64,000 nucleotides of DNA from an uncultured delta proteobacterium (GCA_963769935.1 CAVYNY010000016.1:128001-192000); one strand, 5' to 3'; counted from the stretch's first letter, positions 3,254 to 56,513 are shown. Made by a program: numbers and translations. The notes: a model not told the origin generated them from the letters alone.

Positions 3254-4829
3254 TTAGATTCTGCGGTGTATCCAGTTCAGGTTATCGACCATCTTATCAA
3301 CCATCGACTTCTGAACGGCAGCCGGCGTCTTGGGAACTTCTTCTTCGGTCTCGGAAGCCCGCTTGGCGGCCAGGTCTTCACGTTCCTGGGCGCGTTTTTG
3401 CCGAATTGCATCAAGCTCGGCTTCAGCTTTAGCCTTGGCCTCGGTTGCCTGACGGGCCGCTGCTTCGGCTTTGGCCTTGGCTTCCGCTTCGGCTTTGGCT
3501 TTGGCTTGCGCTTCGGCTTTGACTTTAGCCTCGGCCTCCGCCTTCAGCTTGGCCTCGGCTTTGGCTGCCGCCTCCGCCTTGGCTTTGGCTTCTGCTTCGG
3601 CCTTGGCTTTTTCGTCAACGACGGCTTCGACCTTGGGCGCGGCTGCAGCCGGAGCTGCGGTCGCAGGCTCCGGGGCGGGAGCCGCTTTTTTCGCGGGCTG
3701 GGCCGGAGCTGCGGCAGGTGCCGCTTCCTTGGCGGGTGCCGCCGCAGCCGCCTTGGGTGCCGGAGCCGGCTTTTTTTCTTTTTCTACAGCGATGGTCAGA
3801 TCCGGTTCAGGCGAAAGCGACAGAAAATCAATTTCCACATCGGCCAGCTGCTTTTTAATCGCCGCCACATCGGTAGCCACTCCGCCTTCATAAACCAGGT
3901 CGATGTAAGCCTTGACCAGTCGAATAGACTCGGGATGGCGCATGATTAGAATGTCGGAGCCACCCATGAGGTATGCCACCGCACCTACCGCTTCCATGAG
4001 GATAGCGCGCTTTTCCGGGTCCCCCAGCAGCGGCGCTTCTCGATGCCGACTGCTTGGCTTCTTTGCATTTCCAGACCTCGTTGCCGAGATTGTTGATCAG
4101 CGGAAGCTGCAGCTTTTCGTCACCCTGGCCCAGCGCTGCCATCCGGATTCGTTCCATGACGGAATACGAATATTCCAATCCGTAACCCAGACCGCCGGTG
4201 GTCGGATCGATGATCATGCGATCGGTGGGCATTCCCAGGTTTTCAAGCAGAATGTTGCATTGTTTGGCAAGGTTAACGTCGATCGGCGAAGATGCAATGA
4301 CGGCGTGGCCGAAACCCATGGCGGCCGCCCCGATGCCCTTGTGGTTCTTGTCCTCCACCGGGCCGAGGATCAGGTTTTCTCCCTGACATTCTTCGGCTAT
4401 TTTTTTGAGGACTTCTTCATCCTTTTCGACATTGGCGGAGCCCCAAATGATCAGGGGTACACTCACAGCTCCCAGGACTTTTTTGACGGTTGCAACCGCC
4501 TCACTCGCCGGAGCATCGTTGCCGTTGGGGTCGATACTTTTGAGCTGCAGAACAATCATATCGGCACCGAACTCCTCCACGCACTTTTTAGCCCAGGCGG
4601 CAGGATCTGAAACGACGTCTTTGAAAGGACTGAGCGCTGCCTCCGGCCATTCATCGGGTTTCATATCCCAGATTTCCATGGCTATTTTGGGTTTATTGGG
4701 CATTGCTCCTTCAAACTGATAAAACGGATAGCATGCCTCGCCCCCGACAGTAACGGCTTTATCGCCCTTTCCCAGAGTGATTTCCTTTATACGGCCGGTA
4801 TAGGATTCTTTAAAAAATTCGAAAGCCAA
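3254..4829 (-). CDS. acsD: Corrinoid Fe-S protein small subunit with a long Ala/Lys/Glu-rich C-terminal tail; frameshift near 4040
   Basis: TTG start at 4829 after AGGAGG. Motifs SSPIDVNLAKQ and DPTTGGLGYGLEYSYSVMERIR. Continues in the 3254..3997 frame (EAPLLGDPEKRAILMEAVGA...ILIMRHPES). Confidence 0.9.
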
Positions 4830-30515: not shown

Positions 30516-30561
30516 AGAATCCTGGCCCAGAGGGCCAGGCTTTCAATGTTGGAATATAATA

Positions 30562-32421
30562 TTACAATTTTTTATCTACTAATTTTTGAAATACGTATGG
30601 CAGGCAGTCTTCCGTTTTCATGGGTTTGCCGGCCAAAAGAGAATGCGTATCTATCCATTCTCTTTTATTCGCAGCAATATAGGTTTCCAAATCATGGGCC
30701 TCCATAAAATTTTTGGTTCTTTGAGATACATTTTTTATGGCTGTTTCATGAATAGCGGGGTAATGGTTCATAAGTGCCGCCGCTCCGGCAATATAATGCG
30801 ACCATTTTCTATTCTCTATTGATACCCTTTCGATGCCGTCAGATTTTATCATGGTATCGTAGTCGTCATTTTTAAAAAAATATAAATAGACATCCAAGTA
30901 AAATTTGACCATTTCCAATACACTGGATCCAAAAAATGAATTAAAAGCGTCATCGTCTATGTAAGCATCAGCCAGATACACCATATCCTTGTCCAGATAG
31001 TTAGTATTGTACATTTCTTTATAATCACAGATCTCCTTTACATTGGAGGCATTTCTACTAAAGCCGACACAATTTAAAACAATATCGGCATCTATGTGAT
31101 GTTTATCATCTATGATAATTCCATTTTCATACATAGCGGTTATATTTCCGACGATGGTACTTATTTTTTTTAAATAGTGCCCGATGAACCATATGTCGGA
31201 GACGCTGATTGTGTGGCCGTCGTGTTTAATTTTACCCATCCAGCACTCGGGTTGGGCGGCGCCACTCAGGTCATACAATTTCTTCCAAAGCAGCATGTTT
31301 CTCATGTTGCTTTTTTTATCATGCTGAAAAGATTCATCGTATGGGGTTGCAAAATTCAAGTAATCAATAATCTTGGGGCACACGGTGCCATGTCTTCTAC
31401 AGACGATGGTGACATGGCTGGCGCCGCTTTCCAGGGCGGTCCTGGCATTCTCGACGGCAAAGGCACCCATCCCGATAATTACCACCTTTTTATTTTTCCA
31501 GGGAAAATCTCTAACGTCGTCTGATATACCTGAAATTATTTGTCCTCGATAATCACGTTGATTTACCAGATCAATTTTCCGGGGTGTTCCGACACGATCA
31601 TTTATCGCTAAAATGACGCCGTTGCTTTTCAGGGTCAGTTTTTGTCGGTTCATGGTCAAATTTATTAGATATGAATTGCCGGTTTTTTTTATCCAATCGA
31701 CTTCAGTATTTAGGAAAATATTATCGGAGACGTTGCGGGCCAATGAAACGATATCTTCCAAAATTTCTCTGGTTGTAGAATGGTCTCGGTTGGATCTGGA
31801 CCCTTTTTCAATCATCCGATAACCGGCTTCCGAGGTATTCACTTGGGAGGTGCTGTTGGCATACTGCGACCAGATTCCGCCGACACTATCTCTTTTTTCC
31901 ACCAGACAAAAAGAAATATTGTTTTTTAATAGGCGCTTGGCGGCATATAAGCCGGTCACGCCGGCGCCGACGATAATAACATCGACTGTTTTGGGCAAAA
32001 TTTTTGTGCTGGAAACTTTTAGTCGGCTGTTGTCAAAAACAAACTTTTTTTGGGCATACGCAATTATCGTGCTTTCGAAATTATCCGAATCGGAGGGATC
32101 AAGTTTTATAAGATCGCAGTCGAACTCAGTCAGATCCAAGCCGGCTGGATGAATATCCGATCCATCAAGCAGGAACAGGGCATATGGGAAACATGCCGAT
32201 CGGATGGATTTTAATTCAAGCAGCAATTCATTTACCCATTTCATTTGACGGGTTGAAAATATGAATCCATAAGGCAAATCGGCATGTCTTCTGAGTTCAT
32301 TTACAATCAGCGGAATTTCTTGCGAACCAAAGTTTAAAATTGGACTCAGAGAAAGTTCTACCCGACTGAAATTGGCCAATCTCATCTTAAGGGCCCTGTT
32401 TGTATTTTCCGGTAAGATCAT
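30562..32421 (-). CDS. Class B flavoprotein monooxygenase-like (FMO/BVMO fold) FAD/NAD(P)H oxidoreductase with an about 140 aa N-terminal extension
   Basis: IIVGAGVTG...EKRDSVGGIW (FAD), VVIIGMGAFA...VCRR (NAD(P)H), CVGF. No FxGxxxH fingerprint. RBS GAGGA. Confidence 0.75.
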   Translation of the reverse strand: MILPENTNRALKMRLANFSRVELSLSPILNFGSQEIPLIVNELRRHADLPYGFIFSTRQMKWVNELLLELKSIRSACFPYALFLLDGSDIHPAGLDLTEFDCDLIKLDPSDSDNFESTIIAYAQKKFVFDNSRLKVSSTKILPKTVDVIIVGAGVTGLYAAKRLLKNNISFCLVEKRDSVGGIWSQYANSTSQVNTSEAGYRMIEKGSRSNRDHSTTREILEDIVSLARNVSDNIFLNTEVDWIKKTGNSYLINLTMNRQKLTLKSNGVILAINDRVGTPRKIDLVNQRDYRGQIISGISDDVRDFPWKNKKVVIIGMGAFAVENARTALESGASHVTIVCRRHGTVCPKIIDYLNFATPYDESFQHDKKSNMRNMLLWKKLYDLSGAAQPECWMGKIKHDGHTISVSDIWFIGHYLKKISTIVGNITAMYENGIIIDDKHHIDADIVLNCVGFSRNASNVKEICDYKEMYNTNYLDKDMVYLADAYIDDDAFNSFFGSSVLEMVKFYLDVYLYFFKNDDYDTMIKSDGIERVSIENRKWSHYIAGAAALMNHYPAIHETAIKNVSQRTKNFMEAHDLETYIAANKREWIDTHSLLAGKPMKTEDCLPYVFQKLVDKKL

Positions 32422-32489
32422 AGTATTTCCTCGAATTTCTGGTTTGATTTTATCCCACAGCCTTTTGGCCTTAAGGACGGAAATGGAAA

Positions 32490-32624
32490 AGAAGTAGTTT
32501 CAAAACCTCAGATCAGGTTCAAGGGCAAGGCGCGAGCCGATGAAAAAGCGCAGCATACACGGCAGTATGTGAGCATTTTGAAGAGGCTCGCAACGCAGCC
32601 ATTGGGCCTTATGAAACCACTTCT
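32490..32624. mobile_element. MITE-like 135 bp element with terminal inverted repeats
   Basis: AGAAGTAGTTTCA (32490-32502) and TGAAACCACTTCT (32612-32624), one mismatch. Nested hairpins GCGAGCC..GGCTCGC and GCATAC..GTATGT. Confidence 0.6.
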
Positions 32625-32625
32625 A

Positions 32626-33765
32626 CTAAAATTCTGCATTTGCCAGCCTTGCGCCTTCAACCAATGATTTTAACTTTAACCAGGCAATCTCGCCCGATAC
32701 ACCGGCGGCAGAGGCCGTTGAGGCAAACCCGCAATCGGTTGAGCCGATAACTCTTGCGGGTCCAAGCAATCTTGCAAAATTTAGAATTCGCTGTGCGACC
32801 AGTTCCGGATGTTCAATGGTATTGGAGGTCGTGTCGATGACACCCGGCATCAGAATTTTATTTTCAGGGACAGAAAAATTTTTTATAACTTCCCATTCAT
32901 GCGCATGGCGATGGTTGCTGGATTCGATCGAAATATAGTTTGCATGAACCCGCATGATGCTGTTGAAGATTTTACTTAAATCAATATCGCAGTGATGGGT
33001 GCCGGGATAATTTCCCCAGCAAATGTGAGCTCGGCATTTTCCGCCGTCAATATTTTCCAGCGCCTGATTCAATATATCTAGATTGGTTTCGATCAAGGTT
33101 AAAAAGTATTCTTCCCGCAAGTCCTTAAACCTTGTATGTCTTCCCATTGCCAGATCAGGGCAGTCGATTTGCAGAAAAATTCCGTAACTACTTATTGTTT
33201 CATATTCCTGTTGCAATACCTCTCCTAATTTCTGAAGATACGTTTCGTAGCTTGCATAGTATTTATTCTCCAGAAACAGGGCCACTGTTCCCGGTGAAGG
33301 CGCGGTAAAAAACAACTCGGCGTCGGATTCCGGATACTTTTGTTTCAACTCATAAAAGACCCCGACCATCATATCCAGCTCTTTTCGCAATGATTCCCCG
33401 CCGGTATAGGCAAGCTCCTGCGAGCATGCCGGAAGCCTGATCGGTGCTTTGGGATTAAGTGTAATTAATCCGTTTCTGCCGCTAAACCTCCGGGCATATT
33501 CCGGCAGTTCTTCCAGATCTTTCGGAAAAGGGGCCGTGCCTGTGTCAAAAAACCCTGATATTCTATCGACAGTCGCGCTAATGTAATCGGATCTCGGCAA
33601 TTCACCATTGTTAATGAAAGATAATCCCAACCTAATTTGCTTTTCCAGAATGGTCCTCAAATGACGTCGCAAATCATCATCACTTATTTTTTTCTGCTTT
33701 AAAATCTGGAGGTGCATTTCATTGGGACGCGGCAAAGATCCGACGTGGGTGGTTTTAATTTTCAT
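32626..33765 (-). CDS. Cobalamin-independent methionine synthase II family, core/half-size (related to MesA-D, YxjH and epoxyalkane:CoM transferase)
   Basis: TTHVGSLPRP, NNGE, QIDCP; candidate Zn ligands HIC (H,C), E (SIES) and DCGF; PGVID...EHPELVAQRI. At 379 aa it is only the catalytic half of MetE. Confidence 0.9.
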   Translation of the reverse strand: MKIKTTHVGSLPRPNEMHLQILKQKKISDDDLRRHLRTILEKQIRLGLSFINNGELPRSDYISATVDRISGFFDTGTAPFPKDLEELPEYARRFSGRNGLITLNPKAPIRLPACSQELAYTGGESLRKELDMMVGVFYELKQKYPESDAELFFTAPSPGTVALFLENKYYASYETYLQKLGEVLQQEYETISSYGIFLQIDCPDLAMGRHTRFKDLREEYFLTLIETNLDILNQALENIDGGKCRAHICWGNYPGTHHCDIDLSKIFNSIMRVHANYISIESSNHRHAHEWEVIKNFSVPENKILMPGVIDTTSNTIEHPELVAQRILNFARLLGPARVIGSTDCGFASTASAAGVSGEIAWLKLKSLVEGARLANAEF

Positions 33766-33800
33766 TTTTTTTGCAGCCTCTTTCTTTAAGCAGGAAGATT

Positions 33801-36554
33801 TTATAACAAAGAGTGAATCTCATCTATCAATTGGTCCGGCAGTGGATGTTCAAAAAGCAAATCGGAATCGATTTCGATTGCCAGCGAAGATTGGAGTTGA
33901 GTTATAAATTCGGTGGCACTCATTGAATCCAATCCCTGCTCAATCAGTTCAACATCCGGATCTATAATTTCAATGCTTGTAACTTTAAAAAACAGCCCTT
34001 GGATCAGCTGCTGGACTTGTTCCCGGGATAGTTTGCCTTTTCCATTATTACCCTTCTGAATTTCCGATCCAACATTTTCGAATACCTTCATATTATTTGG
34101 ACCGGCATCTAATTCAACACCGTTGCGGTCAAAATTTATAGCATCAAGCTGATAGTAATTCTCCAGCGATGAGGATCGCCCTCTATCAAATGGAACCGTT
34201 ATATTTTCAATTTCTTTTCTGACCCGCTTTTCCACTCCTTTGATGATGATATGGGCATTTGTTCCTCCAAACCCAAAACTGCTGATGCCGATGTGAGACT
34301 GACCATTTATGCTTGTCGCTTCAGAAACTACCCTTAGATTGAAAGATTCGAAATCAACATATTGATTGGGTCGGTTGAAATGCAGATTCGGCGGAATCGT
34401 GCCATGATACAGGATCAGTACTGATTTTATTAACCCGGCTATACCGGCTGCAGACTCCAGGTGCCCGATATTTGATTTTACCGACCCCAGATAACAATTA
34501 TTTTTGCGGCTCTTGGCAATTGTCCGTTGAATAGCTGAAATTTCAATCGGATCGCCGATCTTAGTGCCGGTCCCATGACATTCGATATAGGATATATCCT
34601 GCGGTTTGATGGCTGCATCCCGACAGGCATCTAAAATTAATTCCTCCTGGGCTTCCGGATGGGGCGCCGTGATAATCTGTGAACGCCCTCCATTTTGATT
34701 AATGGCTGAGCCCAATAGTTCGGCATAATAATTTTTTACCCGCTTTTTATTCGCCAACAGAACCAAGCCGCCGCCTTCGGCCCGAACGTAGCCATCGGCC
34801 GAATTATCAAAAACCTTGCAGCGATTATCTTTCGACAAAAATCCCGAATTTTTCATTTTATCGGTAAAATCATTTCCCAGGATCATATTCACCCCGCCCG
34901 CAATTGCATAGTCGACCCGGCCGGCCTCAATATCTTTGGCAGCATAATGGAGCGCAACCAATGAAGAGGAACAGGCGGTGTTGGAAACCCAACTCGGCCC
35001 CCTCAAATCATAATGGTAGCTTATGCGGGATGCTATTATGCTGGGGTTGGTTCCGGACGGATAATAAACTGAATTTCTGTCACCCCTGTATTCTTGATTC
35101 CATACGCCGATATATACGCCGATTCTTTTTTTATCCAACTTAGCGGGATCAAGGCCGGCGTCTTTAAAAAGTAGTTCCGTTAATTCAAGCGCCAATATCT
35201 GTTGAGGATCCATTGTTTGGGCTTCGGCTTCCGAGATATTAAAATATTTATGGTCAAACCTGGTTATTTCATCATTCAAAAAACCGGCTTCGAAATTACT
35301 CCGGCCGGCATTGGCCTTTACTTGATCTTCTCCCCTCAACAACATATCCCAAAATTGAGTCAAATTTTCGATCGATGATGGAAATCGACAACTCATTCCG
35401 GATATAACCACTTCATTTTTTAGGGATTTTAAATTCAAGGCCTGGTCAGATGGTTGGGTTGATCCAAAATTGTTAATCAATTGATTAATTGTCTTATATC
35501 TATAAAAGTCCTGCGGCGCTAAATTGGGAAAATAGGTTTGCAAAAATTCGGACAACTCAGCAAAAGTCAGCGATGTAAACCCCTGATACGCCAAAGAAGT
35601 TTTAAAATCCACGCCGGGGCGAAATTCTTCTATTGAACGTTTTAGTTTGTTCAAAAACGGATCTTGATCGAGCAGTTTCCGCTGATGCAATATCCACTCT
35701 ATTTCATCCTCTCCTCTAAACATCGATGATACATATTTATAGCTATCAAAAATATCACAACATTTATCCAACACCGGATGAAAACCAATCTCGATTATTT
35801 CCAGTTCATCATCATTAAACCTGGTTTTGATGGTTTGCATGGAACTGATAAAATCGACCGGACTGACCAACCATCGTTGCCAGTGATCGGCATTTAACTG
35901 GTTTTCAAAATTGGCCGTGAGGCCTGATACAAACCTGAAATCTTCTATTTTGCGGGATCGGACAGGGGGCAGTTTATCACTGAAACCATGGTAATCCGGG
36001 TGGTGCCACGGATGGGGCAGTCTCATGGTTACAAAACCAGGGTTTTTCTCTACGAATTCAGTCATTTCATTGGTGTATCCGCTCAAGGTTACATGGTTGT
36101 GAATACCCCTTTTGAAATTCAGGGAAGACAGGTTTACCGATAATTCTTCTATCTGTTGATTCGACAACTCACCATGCAGCATCACGCCTTCCAAATTGGA
36201 GGCTATTTCACCGATCCGAAAGGTTACGTCGAGAATATCTTCCAGGGAATAAAGCCCCGCTTGATATGAAGCCGATAATTCTCCGATACTGTGTCCGATA
36301 ACCACATCCGGATTATATCCCCACTGGGTCCAAATATCGGACAGACAGATTTGCGATACGACCGTCAACAGCGGACTGTAGGGACACCGATGTTTACCGA
36401 TCTCATTTTCCCAGATTTCTTCTAAATTTAAACCAAATTTTGAATCTAATATGGATCGTATTTCAGACCAGCATTGCGAATGTTCCAATAGTTTGAAGCT
36501 GCTATCGCTGTTGCTGGTGCCTTCCCCTGAATATAAATATATAATTTTTTTCAT
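33801..36554 (-). CDS. Minimal type I polyketide synthase-like protein, domain order AT-ACP-KS-ACP
   Basis: ATG at 36554 after GAGGT. AT: GHSIGE..R, EIGFHPVL. ACP1: QGFTSL. KS: MDPQQ, TACSSSL, ECHGTGT, KSNIGHLESAAG, SSFGFGGTNAH. ACP2: QGLDSM. Confidence 0.9.
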   Translation of the reverse strand: MKKIIYLYSGEGTSNSDSSFKLLEHSQCWSEIRSILDSKFGLNLEEIWENEIGKHRCPYSPLLTVVSQICLSDIWTQWGYNPDVVIGHSIGELSASYQAGLYSLEDILDVTFRIGEIASNLEGVMLHGELSNQQIEELSVNLSSLNFKRGIHNHVTLSGYTNEMTEFVEKNPGFVTMRLPHPWHHPDYHGFSDKLPPVRSRKIEDFRFVSGLTANFENQLNADHWQRWLVSPVDFISSMQTIKTRFNDDELEIIEIGFHPVLDKCCDIFDSYKYVSSMFRGEDEIEWILHQRKLLDQDPFLNKLKRSIEEFRPGVDFKTSLAYQGFTSLTFAELSEFLQTYFPNLAPQDFYRYKTINQLINNFGSTQPSDQALNLKSLKNEVVISGMSCRFPSSIENLTQFWDMLLRGEDQVKANAGRSNFEAGFLNDEITRFDHKYFNISEAEAQTMDPQQILALELTELLFKDAGLDPAKLDKKRIGVYIGVWNQEYRGDRNSVYYPSGTNPSIIASRISYHYDLRGPSWVSNTACSSSLVALHYAAKDIEAGRVDYAIAGGVNMILGNDFTDKMKNSGFLSKDNRCKVFDNSADGYVRAEGGGLVLLANKKRVKNYYAELLGSAINQNGGRSQIITAPHPEAQEELILDACRDAAIKPQDISYIECHGTGTKIGDPIEISAIQRTIAKSRKNNCYLGSVKSNIGHLESAAGIAGLIKSVLILYHGTIPPNLHFNRPNQYVDFESFNLRVVSEATSINGQSHIGISSFGFGGTNAHIIIKGVEKRVRKEIENITVPFDRGRSSSLENYYQLDAINFDRNGVELDAGPNNMKVFENVGSEIQKGNNGKGKLSREQVQQLIQGLFFKVTSIEIIDPDVELIEQGLDSMSATEFITQLQSSLAIEIDSDLLFEHPLPDQLIDEIHSLL

Positions 36555-36635
36555 ATTGGTGACCTCGGCATATTGCTGGCTTACGCTGTTTAATTTAATC
36601 CCCAACTTGGAGAAATTTACCGTTCAAAAATTTGC

Positions 36636-36663
36636 AAAAAAAAACCTCCCGACAGGGGGAGGT
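36636..36663 (-). terminator. Intrinsic terminator, the expression platform of the SAM riboswitch
   Basis: Minus strand ACCTCCC-cctgtc-GGGAGGT followed by a T-run. The 5' arm ACCTC is complementary to GAGGT at the 3' end of aptamer P1, giving an antiterminator. Confidence 0.85.
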
Positions 36664-36685
36664 AAGATGCCATTTGTCTTCAGCG

Positions 36686-36783
36686 ACCTCATGTTCCCCT
36701 TACGGGACTGGATTTAGCACCTTTATGGAATAGGTTGCTGAGCGGTCAACGGGCCAGTTCCCTCACGCTACTCTTCATGACTC
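36686..36783 (-). ncRNA. SAM-I (S-box) riboswitch aptamer
   Basis: Minus strand reads UCAUG-AAGAG-UAGCGU-GAGGGAACUGGCCC-GUUGA-CCGCU-CAGCAACC-uauuccaua-AAGGUGCUAAAUCCAG-ucccguaaggggaa-CAUGA. It has the S-box core motifs (AGAG, GAGGGA.CUGGCCC, GCAACC, GGUGC.AA.UCC), P1 pairing and the CUGG/CCAG pseudoknot. Confidence 0.92.
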
Positions 36784-36797
36784 TTTAATTTCTAATT

Positions 36798-36825
36798 ATG
36801 ATAGGGATGATACATTTAAAGTCAA
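36798..36825 (-). promoter_or_regulatory. Putative sigma70 promoter of the SAM-regulated operon
   Basis: TTGACT-N16-TATCAT, ending about 15 nt before the aptamer. Confidence 0.55.
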
Positions 36826-37038
36826 GCTTCATCGGAATTTTTTTTTAGACCCCAGCCCGGAAAAGCCGAAGCCAAGATGGACAAATTAATCACGAAAGCG
36901 CGAAAGGACGAAAACACGAAAAGAATAAAAGACTATTTTCGTGCTTTTCTAGATTTCGTATTTTCGTGATAAAAAATTTTTCATAAAATGCAAAGAAATA
37001 ACTATCAAGATTCCAAAGTAGAACTTCCCAGCCATTGC

Positions 37039-55292: not shown

Positions 55293-55501
55293 TCCGCCCT
55301 GAAAAATAAAGTCCTGGCGGTTGTGCATTGTTCTATGTAAATTGAAGAAAGTTGGTAGATCGAAGGTTCAGCGGATTAATTAGCTTTTTGTTCTTGACAA
55401 CACAACCTCGATCTCTTAACTTTTTATATTATTAGTTACTACGCTTTCAAAGAATCATATTCAAACCTGAACACACACTATTTTTCAGGGCGGATTAATT
55501 A
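55286..55501. repeat. Perfect 23-bp inverted repeat bracketing the thi promoter region
   Basis: TAATTAATCCGCCCTGAAAAATA (55286-55308) and TATTTTTCAGGGCGGATTAATTA (55479-55501). TTGACA-N17-TAACTT at 55394-55422 lies between them. Confidence 0.8.
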
Positions 55502-55502
55502 A

Positions 55503-55576
55503 TATTAGGGGTGGCTTCCGAAGCCTGAGATTACACCCTTTGAACCTGATCTGGATAATGCCAGCGTAGGGAAACG
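55503..55576 (+). ncRNA. TPP (THI-box) riboswitch
   Basis: GGGGTG...GCCTGAGA..ACACCCTTTGAACCTGATCTGGATAATGCCAGCGTAGGGAA, upstream of thiM. Confidence 0.95.
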
Positions 55577-55606
55577 AGTGGAAGAACAATTGCGAGATGC
55601 AAACCC

Positions 55607-55706: not shown

Positions 55707-56513
55707 ATGACAAGTCTATCGGATAAAGCGGCGGAAAATCTGGCCGCACTTCGCAAAAAAAAACCGCTGATTCACAATATCACCAACTTCGTCGTCATGA
55801 ATTATACGGCCAATGCCCTTCTGGCAATGGGCGCGTCACCTGTAATGGCCCATGCTCAAAACGAAGTGGAAGATATGGTTTCATTTGCCGGTGCACTGGT
55901 TCTCAACATCGGCACCCTGACGGATGATTGGGTCGCTTCCATGATCAAAGCCGGCAAAAAAGCCACCGCTTTGGGCATACCGATCATCCTGGACCCGGTG
56001 GGTTCCGGCGCAACTGCCTTGCGGACAAACTCGGCCAAAAAAATTATCGAGGCGGCGGCCGTCCGTGTCATCCGCGGCAATGCATCGGAAATTCTATCTT
56101 TGCGGCATGAGGACTCCGGCACCAAAGGCGTGGATTCGGTGCACTCCGTCGACGATGCCGCGGAAACAGCCAAAATACTGGCACAGGCACTGACCACCAC
56201 CCTGGCGATTACCGGTCCGGTGGATCTGGTCACCGATGGCCGACGGGTGGTCCGGATATCAAACGGCCATCCGCTGATGGGGTTTGTCACGGGCACCGGC
56301 TGCGCAGCAACGGTTACCATCGGCGCATTTCTGGCAGTGGACAACGACCCGGTCAGTGCGACGGCAAGCGCCCTGGCATACTTCGGACTGGCCGGCGAAG
56401 TGGCCGGTCAGTCGGCATCGGCCCCGGGAAGTTTTATGATTCAGATGCTCGATGCCCTTTACACCATTACACCGGAAAAGCTGAGGGAAGGATGCAAGAT
56501 TCAAAATGAATGA
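55707..56513 (+). CDS. thiM: Hydroxyethylthiazole kinase
   Basis: PLIHNITNFV..N..AN.LLA.GASPVM, LNIGTL, LDPVG, RGNASEI, TGTGC. Confidence 0.96.
   Translation: MTSLSDKAAENLAALRKKKPLIHNITNFVVMNYTANALLAMGASPVMAHAQNEVEDMVSFAGALVLNIGTLTDDWVASMIKAGKKATALGIPIILDPVGSGATALRTNSAKKIIEAAAVRVIRGNASEILSLRHEDSGTKGVDSVHSVDDAAETAKILAQALTTTLAITGPVDLVTDGRRVVRISNGHPLMGFVTGTGCAATVTIGAFLAVDNDPVSATASALAYFGLAGEVAGQSASAPGSFMIQMLDALYTITPEKLREGCKIQNE

Follow-up and report, generated by a model that had tools for sequence, protein, structure and literature searches.

The question raised by this locus is why a polyketide synthase (PKS)-like gene should lie behind a riboswitch for S-adenosylmethionine (SAM) and beside a gene for a methionine synthase-like enzyme. 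The window, meaning the whole stretch of DNA that was analyzed, comprises 64,000 nucleotides from an uncultured delta proteobacterium (GCA_963769935.1 CAVYNY010000016.1:128001-192000; genome G000). The locus occupies positions 30562-36830, where the minus strand carries every named part: promoter, SAM-I aptamer, terminator, and the genes for an acyltransferase-acyl carrier protein-ketosynthase-acyl carrier protein (AT-ACP-KS-ACP) chain, a core MetE, and a class B flavoprotein. As judged from sequence comparison, the three genes represent the algal MetE-fusion in an unfused, bacterial form, and with high confidence they constitute a real, conserved three-part methionine synthase system. The answer that we put forward, with slightly better than even confidence, is a new methionine route in which an ACP cycle uses O2 to convert acetyl-CoA to a methyl ester, whose methyl group passes to homocysteine without folate, cobalamin, or SAM. 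This route would also be the mechanism of the protist MetE-fusion, and in relatives of sulfate reducers it would serve as an oxic backup under two independently recruited SAM switches.

The integrity of the system was judged from its distribution. When GTDB genomes were scanned with the flavoprotein, 32 loci were obtained, mostly from Desulfobacterota with a few labeled Myxococcota, Spirochaetota, Proteobacteria, and Chloroflexota, and the PKS and MetE genes adjoined the flavoprotein gene in 29 of these. L015 and L031 were cut by contig edges, and their missing genes were found on other contigs of the same genomes. The reverse test gave the same picture, as 7 of the 301 genomes in the order to which the window belongs had the MetE subfamily, with no weaker matches in the others down to E 1e-20, and in the six carriers besides G000 the flavoprotein gene was adjacent in all six and the PKS gene in five, the sixth being cut by a contig end. 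Two of these six are the genomes of L013 and L037. The flavoprotein was found in none of 400 other genomes in a phylum-wide sample (four candidates scored in each). The three proteins are encoded by separate open reading frames (ORFs) with stops in the window and likewise in all related bacterial loci, and the MetE gene is inverted in 17 of the 32. No common regulator site was evident by eye among the divergent MetE-flavoprotein spacers listed. The only other partner recurring in unrelated contexts was a phosphopantetheinyl transferase (PPTase) gene, which follows the flavoprotein gene in seven loci; in G000 it lies elsewhere in the genome. Contigs of a close relative that span the three genes and their flanks were present in four RNA runs of one sediment study and were not used as evidence, since contigs establish neither transcription nor a single transcript.

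The second line of evidence came from fused chains. A profile search of 1.84 billion protein representatives retrieved single polypeptides with the order AT-ACP-KS-ACP-MetE-flavoprotein (P0244, P0247, P0254, and P0257) as well as shorter forms, the named sources being Chrysophaeum taylorii and Emiliania huxleyi. Compared end to end with the window's proteins, the fusions showed identities of 29-34% (PKS), 36-43% (MetE), and 39-49% (flavoprotein). P0244 is an uninterrupted, complete fusion of 1,870 residues on a 246-kb metagenome contig; relatives of it were absent from viral contigs, and one 2-kb fragment was found in metagenomes. Another record, P0394, whose printed taxon id is that of a fungus, was not given a source. 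In Phaeocystis antarctica, the MetE-fusion increases and MetH decreases with declining B12 (Rao et al. 2024, PMC10861871). The available text of that study leaves the role of the extra fusion domains undetermined, with zinc trafficking and methylated nutrients as suggestions, and states that the other domains are missing from prokaryotic hits and that the fusion arose in eukaryotes. In its supplement, two MetE proteins of this family from Desulfobacteraceae appear as stand-alone "core" sequences, and the words "operon," "riboswitch," and "Baeyer" are absent from the supplement text that was available. The gene set is thus already known in eukaryotes, and its bacterial operon form is not described in the portions available of Rao et al. 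The sequence-only reading had stated that no described system has this gene set, which was wrong, the same domains forming the algal MetE-fusion (PMC10861871). A literature search, mostly without subscription journals, returned no paper with this operon or mechanism and one that merely cites the MetE-fusion. In a quick flavoprotein tree (63 rows), the bacterial clade fell inside the eukaryotic fusions with a support of 91; in the MetE tree (29 rows, with 16 bacterial rows chosen from 36), the base was open and one eukaryotic clade was not rejected (p-AU 0.208). Together, the two trees do not fix the direction of transfer between bacteria and protists.

Regulation was the next consideration. 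A SAM-I (S-box) aptamer at 36686-36783 on the minus strand matched Rfam RF00162 over model positions 1-108 of 108 with 59.8 bits against a gathering cut-off of 44.4 (E 2.5e-11), and it was the single match in the genome among 150 of 620 candidates scored. Upstream, a sigma-70-like promoter (36798-36825, minus strand) has -35 and -10 boxes with a 16-base spacer and 10 of 12 consensus matches. With 16 such sites found in the region and 16.4 expected by chance, the site at 36825-36798 alone is not above chance; its -35 box reappears at the same location in the leaders of related loci. The expression platform (36635-36690, minus strand) consists of an antiterminator (36690-36686 with 36663-36659) and an intrinsic terminator, a hairpin at 36663-36644 followed by a run of U residues. 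The 5-bp antiterminator overlaps the 3' strand of P1, which can pair alternatively with the 5' arm of the terminator. Constrained folds gave -41.6 kcal/mol for P1 plus terminator and -40.3 for the antiterminator, a computed difference of 1.3, and such mutually exclusive, nearly equal folds indicate that the leader would behave as expected for an OFF switch. It is accordingly a candidate SAM-I OFF switch, with SAM binding and a drop in read-through as predictions only. The promoter, complete aptamer, antiterminator/terminator, and three codirectional genes of the sequence-only reading were borne out, including by the Rfam comparison that it had named as a check. The intergenic gaps are 35 bases between genes 1 and 2 and 204 bases between genes 2 and 3, and the three genes form a putative operon.

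In the relatives, a SAM-I aptamer over the Rfam cut-off was found ahead of the PKS gene in 12 of the 32 loci, including all 11 codirectional loci with enough upstream DNA; it is present in L042 and cut by the contig end in L007. Among the 17 loci with an inverted MetE gene, SAM-I was found in one (L018), and a different leader was found in nine. This SAM-II-like leader lies between promoter and terminator at L016:5545-5620 and also occurs in L020, L021, L022, L024, L025, L028, L029, and L034 and in L102-L115. Its best Rfam match was SAM_alpha (SAM-II class) at 23 bits against a cut-off of 36, and it fell below the cut-offs of RF00521 and RF01726. The core letters of the SAM_alpha consensus are kept, with a terminator downstream, and the pseudoknot pairs are possible in all 14 copies but invariant, so no covariation is available. 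The loop side of the intrinsic terminator could pair with the 3' core of the aptamer. All 14 copies in 151 genomes of one family precede this PKS gene, and we regard the leader as a candidate for a transcription-terminating SAM-II variant in Desulfocapsaceae relatives. As a separate, regulatory line of evidence, SAM-type switches at this position indicate that the PKS part serves to supply methionine. The proposal that this is a SAM-controlled methionine or methyl-supply system rather than a natural-product cluster was strongly supported by the synteny, the two switch classes, and the single-chain fusions. Its alternative form, with a sulfur acceptor or the formation of homocysteine, found no support in this analysis.

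The second gene (32626-33765, minus strand) encodes a core MetE of 379 residues, i.e., a C-terminal barrel only, with PF01717 as its sole domain and a fold matching MetE barrels; it was the only PF01717 gene found in G000. The zinc ligands were assigned to His247, Cys249, Glu281, and Cys345 and the amino-acid-binding residues to Ser10, Glu55, and Asp201, the roles of these residues (zinc and the amino acid part of homocysteine) being taken from the available text of Price et al. (PMC7857596). All seven residues were invariant in 62 of 62 aligned homologues and were kept in the fusions. In addition, a basic loop and two motifs are common to the operon and fusion MetEs.

These data bear on the proposal that the core MetE acts by itself with a methylated nutrient or a corrinoid protein, the PKS and flavoprotein being passengers or helpers, for instance in zinc delivery as suggested by Rao et al. 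Such use of methyl-corrinoids has parallels, as MesA and MesB use methylcobalamin or methyl-corrinoid (PMC7857596, in part), and stand-alone MetE relatives exist at 37-41% identity (L082 and L121). Furthermore, a stand-alone B12-binding (corrinoid) protein gene lies directly 3' of the flavoprotein gene in two loci (L027:11743-12549 and L032:11596-12555). Against this, the motifs common to the operon and fusion MetEs are missing from L082, the PKS gene keeps the switch in loci with an inverted MetE, and the near-obligate co-occurrence in both directions and the single-chain fusions argue for a joint function; an autonomous MetE was thus considered highly improbable. As a separate observation on the MetE family, other core-MetE-like genes (L051:1327-2649, L053:1399-2565, and L054:1474-2649) contain one in-frame TGA each and adjoin small TusA/DsrE-like genes, as seen by eye; they are possibly selenocysteine enzymes.

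The first gene (33801-36554, minus strand) encodes a PKS-like protein of 917 residues with matches to AT, ACP, KS, and ACP domains. The ORF finder placed its start at TTG 36605 (934 residues); the homologues begin at ATG 36554, which is most likely the start. On the minus strand, the AT (about 36554-35670) has Ser89 and Ile114, the latter replacing the malonyl-binding Arg; ACP1 (35657-35451) has Ser328, the KS (35417-34212) has Cys528, His660, and His698, and ACP2 (34022-33810) has Ser877. An AT without the malonyl-binding Arg is the mark of a starter-loading AT. Here the catalytic serine is intact, and 25 residues farther on, all 23 bacterial and all 4 fused proteins have Ile or Leu in place of Arg; the Arg was kept in all 3 of the unrelated ATs that this search also returned and in PDB ATs. 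The KS Cys/His/His triad and the ACP1 serine were invariant (23 of 23), and the final ACP was single or doubled among homologues. The domain search gave no ketoreductase (KR), dehydratase (DH), or thioesterase (TE) domain in the 917-residue protein, and none recurs nearby in related loci. The features of a natural-product type I PKS, namely, an extender AT Arg and a processing or release domain, are therefore lacking, and gene 1 is predicted to be a starter loader plus condensing enzyme without an extender AT or a reductive or release domain.

The domain content also bears on whether the product is instead a small thioether metabolite, such as an S-alkylated homocysteine or cysteine, with SAM control incidental. 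The core-MetE fold also occurs in epoxyalkane:coenzyme M transferases, family members carry that annotation in the available supplement of Rao et al. (PMC10861871), and a monooxygenase beside a zinc thiol-alkyltransferase could epoxidize and then add a thiol. Nevertheless, there is no DH or KR for making an alkene and no release domain, the homocysteine-binding residues are invariant, two unrelated candidate OFF switches of SAM type stand ahead of the PKS gene, and the Phaeocystis protein is expressed reciprocally with MetH (PMC10861871, in part). A thioether product was thus deemed very unlikely.

The third gene (30562-32421, minus strand) encodes a class B flavoprotein monooxygenase-fold protein of 619 residues. 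It is a two-Rossmann flavoprotein with the FAD and NAD(P)H Rossmann motifs of that fold (FAD site 152-157, NAD(P)H site 317-319, and Asn195), and its top PDB sequence matches were Baeyer-Villiger monooxygenases (BVMOs) at E 1.6e-11. The N-terminal 140 residues form a domain without a named family and gave no Atlas hit. The nearest paralogues are PKS-module domains, located after a KS in 21, after a KR in 5, and before an ACP in 26 of 63 copies; the window's flavoprotein is a separate gene. From this placement, the family likely acts on ACP-bound beta-keto chains. The same unannotated family, often missed by Pfam, was seen as KS-flavoprotein-ACP modules in large PKSs (P0253, P0271, P0275, P0281, P0282, P0291, P0297, P0301, P0309, and P0314), the only named carrier being Prymnesium parvum, and these modules are candidates for eukaryotic oxygen-insertion modules.

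Taken together, the three proteins are probably an oxygen-dependent, B12- and folate-independent methionine synthase with an acetyl-CoA-derived methyl group. The best mechanism for it, in our moderately confident judgment from the sequences, is an acetyl-CoA/O2/methyl-ester cycle. The Arg-less AT would load acetyl onto ACP1, and the KS would condense acetyl with malonyl-ACP2 to give acetoacetyl-ACP2 and CO2. The flavoprotein, with O2 and NAD(P)H, would then insert oxygen beside the terminal methyl to give malonyl-ACP methyl ester. Finally, the zinc-bound homocysteine thiolate on core MetE would accept the methyl and the malonyl carboxylate would leave, giving methionine and malonyl-ACP2. As a leaving group, a carboxylate is superior to the tetrahydrofolate displaced by MetE. 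The net reaction would be acetyl-CoA + homocysteine + O2 + NAD(P)H to methionine + CO2 + CoA + H2O. ACP2 would be primed once with malonyl, probably by the host FabD. Since malonyl-ACP would be regenerated as the next extender, the absence of an extender AT and a thioesterase is explained. The sequence-only reading had offered KS condensation, Baeyer-Villiger conversion, and methyl transfer as a speculative route; the active site of the AT and the missing release domain now lend this route some support. The best FabD match of G000 (G000:C18:166603-167456) is in two pieces, perhaps through an assembly frameshift.

The chemistry has parallels in known enzymes. OocK turns beta-keto thioesters into malonyl esters (PMC6174933), acetone monooxygenase (ACMO) converts acetone to methyl acetate (PMC6215540, in part), and LbmC-Ox, as described in the text available, gives from an unmethylated substrate mainly the ester orientation proposed here (PMC7586987). 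MesD/MesX, a core MetE that works without folate or cobalamin, is partner- and oxygen-dependent, with its methyl thought to come from central metabolism (Price et al. 2021, PMC7857596, in part); an oxygen-dependent core methionine synthase thus has precedent.

Several observations weigh against this interpretation. Acetyl as the AT-loaded group is deduced from the missing residue only. Of four beta-keto thioesters tested with OocK, two (9 and 10) were not converted (PMC6174933), and from its natural substrate LbmC-Ox forms the opposite ester (PMC7586987, in part). In the loci where MetE is inverted (17 of 32), the switch would control only the PKS gene. Neither switch was found in L013, L017, L033, L035, and L036 (MetE inverted, upstream DNA present) or in L040 and L044. 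Frameshifts occur in L010, L016, L023, L028, and L035, and L038 is a flavoprotein fragment whose genome yielded no MetE of this family. The flavoprotein raises further points of this kind. Type I BVMOs carry a histidine fingerprint between the Rossmann motifs and an aromatic-proline motif with Asp. When these motifs were compared with PDB rows, the classical type I BVMO/FMO histidine fingerprint was absent in 33 of 33 flavoprotein rows, and Asn195 stands where phenylacetone monooxygenase has Asp. Part of the structure model near the active site is of low confidence, and the top structural matches are tied among the disulfide reductase Bdr (Z 24.2), an N-oxygenase, and LbmA-Ox, whose proposed product is an oxime rather than an ester (PMC7586987, in part).

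The same flavoprotein data would suit a synthase of the same three parts with other chemistry, such as oxygen insertion on the opposite side to form acetoxyacetyl-ACP, hydroxylation of the alpha carbon, or N/S oxidation of an ACP-bound intermediate, the methyl donor being another species or deriving from a longer acyl chain. Both ester orientations are known for PKS oxygenases (PMC7586987, in part), residue 195 is of the FMO type with no BVMO fingerprint, and N-oxygenases are among the top structural matches. With AT, KS, ACP, flavoprotein, and MetE alone, however, no such product has a heteroatom methyl or regenerates the extender. Such routes would call for an enzyme that releases or decarboxylates the product, and apart from the PPTase no additional gene is recurrent. 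These variants were accordingly considered unlikely. It could also be argued that the flavoprotein is a reductase that supplies the methyl or alkyl group without O2. The bacillithiol disulfide reductase gave the top Z score, with several monooxygenases within 1; Cys348 and Cys393 are invariant in the bacterial flavoproteins, and the hosts come mostly from anaerobic lineages. In contrast, by sequence the protein is most similar to BVMOs and FMOs, Cys393 is not conserved in the fusions, the same machine operates in algae that evolve oxygen, and carriers are enriched for heme-copper oxidase-family genes. No route that would lead reductively from an acyl-ACP to a methyl donor is known to us, and a reductase was likewise judged very unlikely.

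For the methyl-ester cycle, the physiology of the hosts was then considered. The MetE folate-binding domain (PF08267) was over the cut-off in 1 of 37 carriers (36 without), and the MetH homocysteine domain was found in 15 (22 without at E 1e-40). Whether carriers lack metH and metE had been named as a check in the sequence-only reading. A gene for a MesB-like, anaerobic synthase is present in 33 of 37; the assignment of these genes follows the residue spacing given in PMC7857596 and not a reference sequence. The idea that the three-gene set is the sole methionine synthase of its carriers was therefore dropped. G000 itself also has a MesB-like gene, a split MetH-like pair, and a corrinoid iron-sulfur protein. 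The set is likely a backup, switched on as SAM falls, when oxygen or a lack of cobamide disables MesB or the split MetH. A heme-copper oxidase-family gene (PF00115) was found in 36 of 37 carriers and in 152 of 301 genomes in the order, and its presence together with MesB-like genes fits an oxic backup. PF00115 also matches nitric oxide reductases and the carriers are related, so this enrichment is only a hint, and the hosts are mostly Desulfobacterota, generally anaerobes; both points count against the oxic role. Genes for a Wood-Ljungdahl corrinoid iron-sulfur protein (PF03599) and a methyltransferase were located at 4062-4784 (minus strand) and G000:C16:124437-126453, about 26 kb from the three-gene set. 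In one close relative, a catalase-peroxidase gene (L023:12041-14242) adjoins the set. In L022, L024, and L025, a TRAP transporter (DctP, DctQ, and DctM) and a PEP-mutase/isocitrate-lyase-family gene are inserted between the MetE and flavoprotein genes, with an isocitrate/isopropylmalate dehydrogenase-family gene farther along.

The G+C content of the three-gene region is 42%, compared with 51% for the genome, and the region was not found in any of seven other genomes of the genus; this suggests horizontal gain. Between genes 2 and 3 lies a palindromic repeat element (32422-32625; dispersed repeat at 32490-32625) outside the conserved system, with four further partial copies in the genome. A hairpin read from the sequence at 30521-30539, between the flavoprotein gene and the convergent etfA, is likely a terminator common to both. 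Upstream, a dispersed repeat at 36856-37020 had about 60 BLAST matches in the genome. The adjoining alpha/beta hydrolase gene (37767-37039) was rejected as a member of the system, as it recurs in 2 of 32 loci and precedes the promoter. Elsewhere in the window, a TPP riboswitch (55497-55589, plus strand, 73 bits) lies ahead of ORFs beginning at 55707.

If the proposal is true, it describes a methionine synthase that uses the methyl of acetyl-CoA, a PKS in primary metabolism, a methyl ester as a thiol-methylating agent, and the mechanism by which haptophytes and other marine protists do without B12 in growth. What donates the methyl in the algal MetE-fusion bears on the B12 limitation of ocean productivity. 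Because the bacterial set splits a 1,900-residue chain into three separately expressible proteins, the methyl-donor question of the MetE-fusion becomes directly testable.

Compared with known systems, the proposed synthase resembles MesD/MesX in having a core MetE, partner and oxygen dependence, and a methyl from central metabolism. It differs in that its partners are a PKS and a flavoprotein rather than DUF1852, MesD being found in aerobes. DUF1852 (PF08908) was not seen among 58 scanned neighbor genes, with no genome-wide search aimed at PF08908 made. To MesD 3RPD the identity was 17% by structural alignment (E 2.6e-5 by sequence), whereas MesDs share about 55-72% (PMC7857596, in part). MesB is likewise a core MetE of Wood-Ljungdahl bacteria and occurs in the same genomes; its third zinc ligand is Asp (+21) with a Cys at about +97, whereas here it is Glu (+34), and the window's MetE gave no significant sequence match to the MesB-like proteins of L079 and L080. 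A split MetE was not supported, as the folate-binding subunit (PF08267) was not found in G000. Like OocK/PedG and LbmC-Ox in the oxygen-insertion modules of trans-AT PKSs, the protein would be a flavoprotein of class B that follows a KS and has a beta-keto thioester on an ACP as its substrate; their ester is extended into a natural product, whereas here it would be a recycled methyl donor. The family of the window's flavoprotein is the one seen in algal PKS modules. The proposed intermediate belongs to the same compound class as the malonyl-ACP methyl ester of biotin synthesis. BioC makes that ester from SAM, whereas here it would arise oxidatively and serve methionine synthesis. The closest likeness is to the algal MetE-fusion, which shares the domain order AT, ACP, KS, ACP, core MetE, and CzcO/Pyr_redox_2 flavoprotein, homology along all three parts, and a single C-terminal MetE barrel with a His-x-Cys, Glu, Cys zinc site. 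The whole machine, beyond the MetE domain, is thus present in bacteria, where it differs from the fusion in being encoded by three genes, not as one polypeptide, with candidate SAM riboswitches in front.

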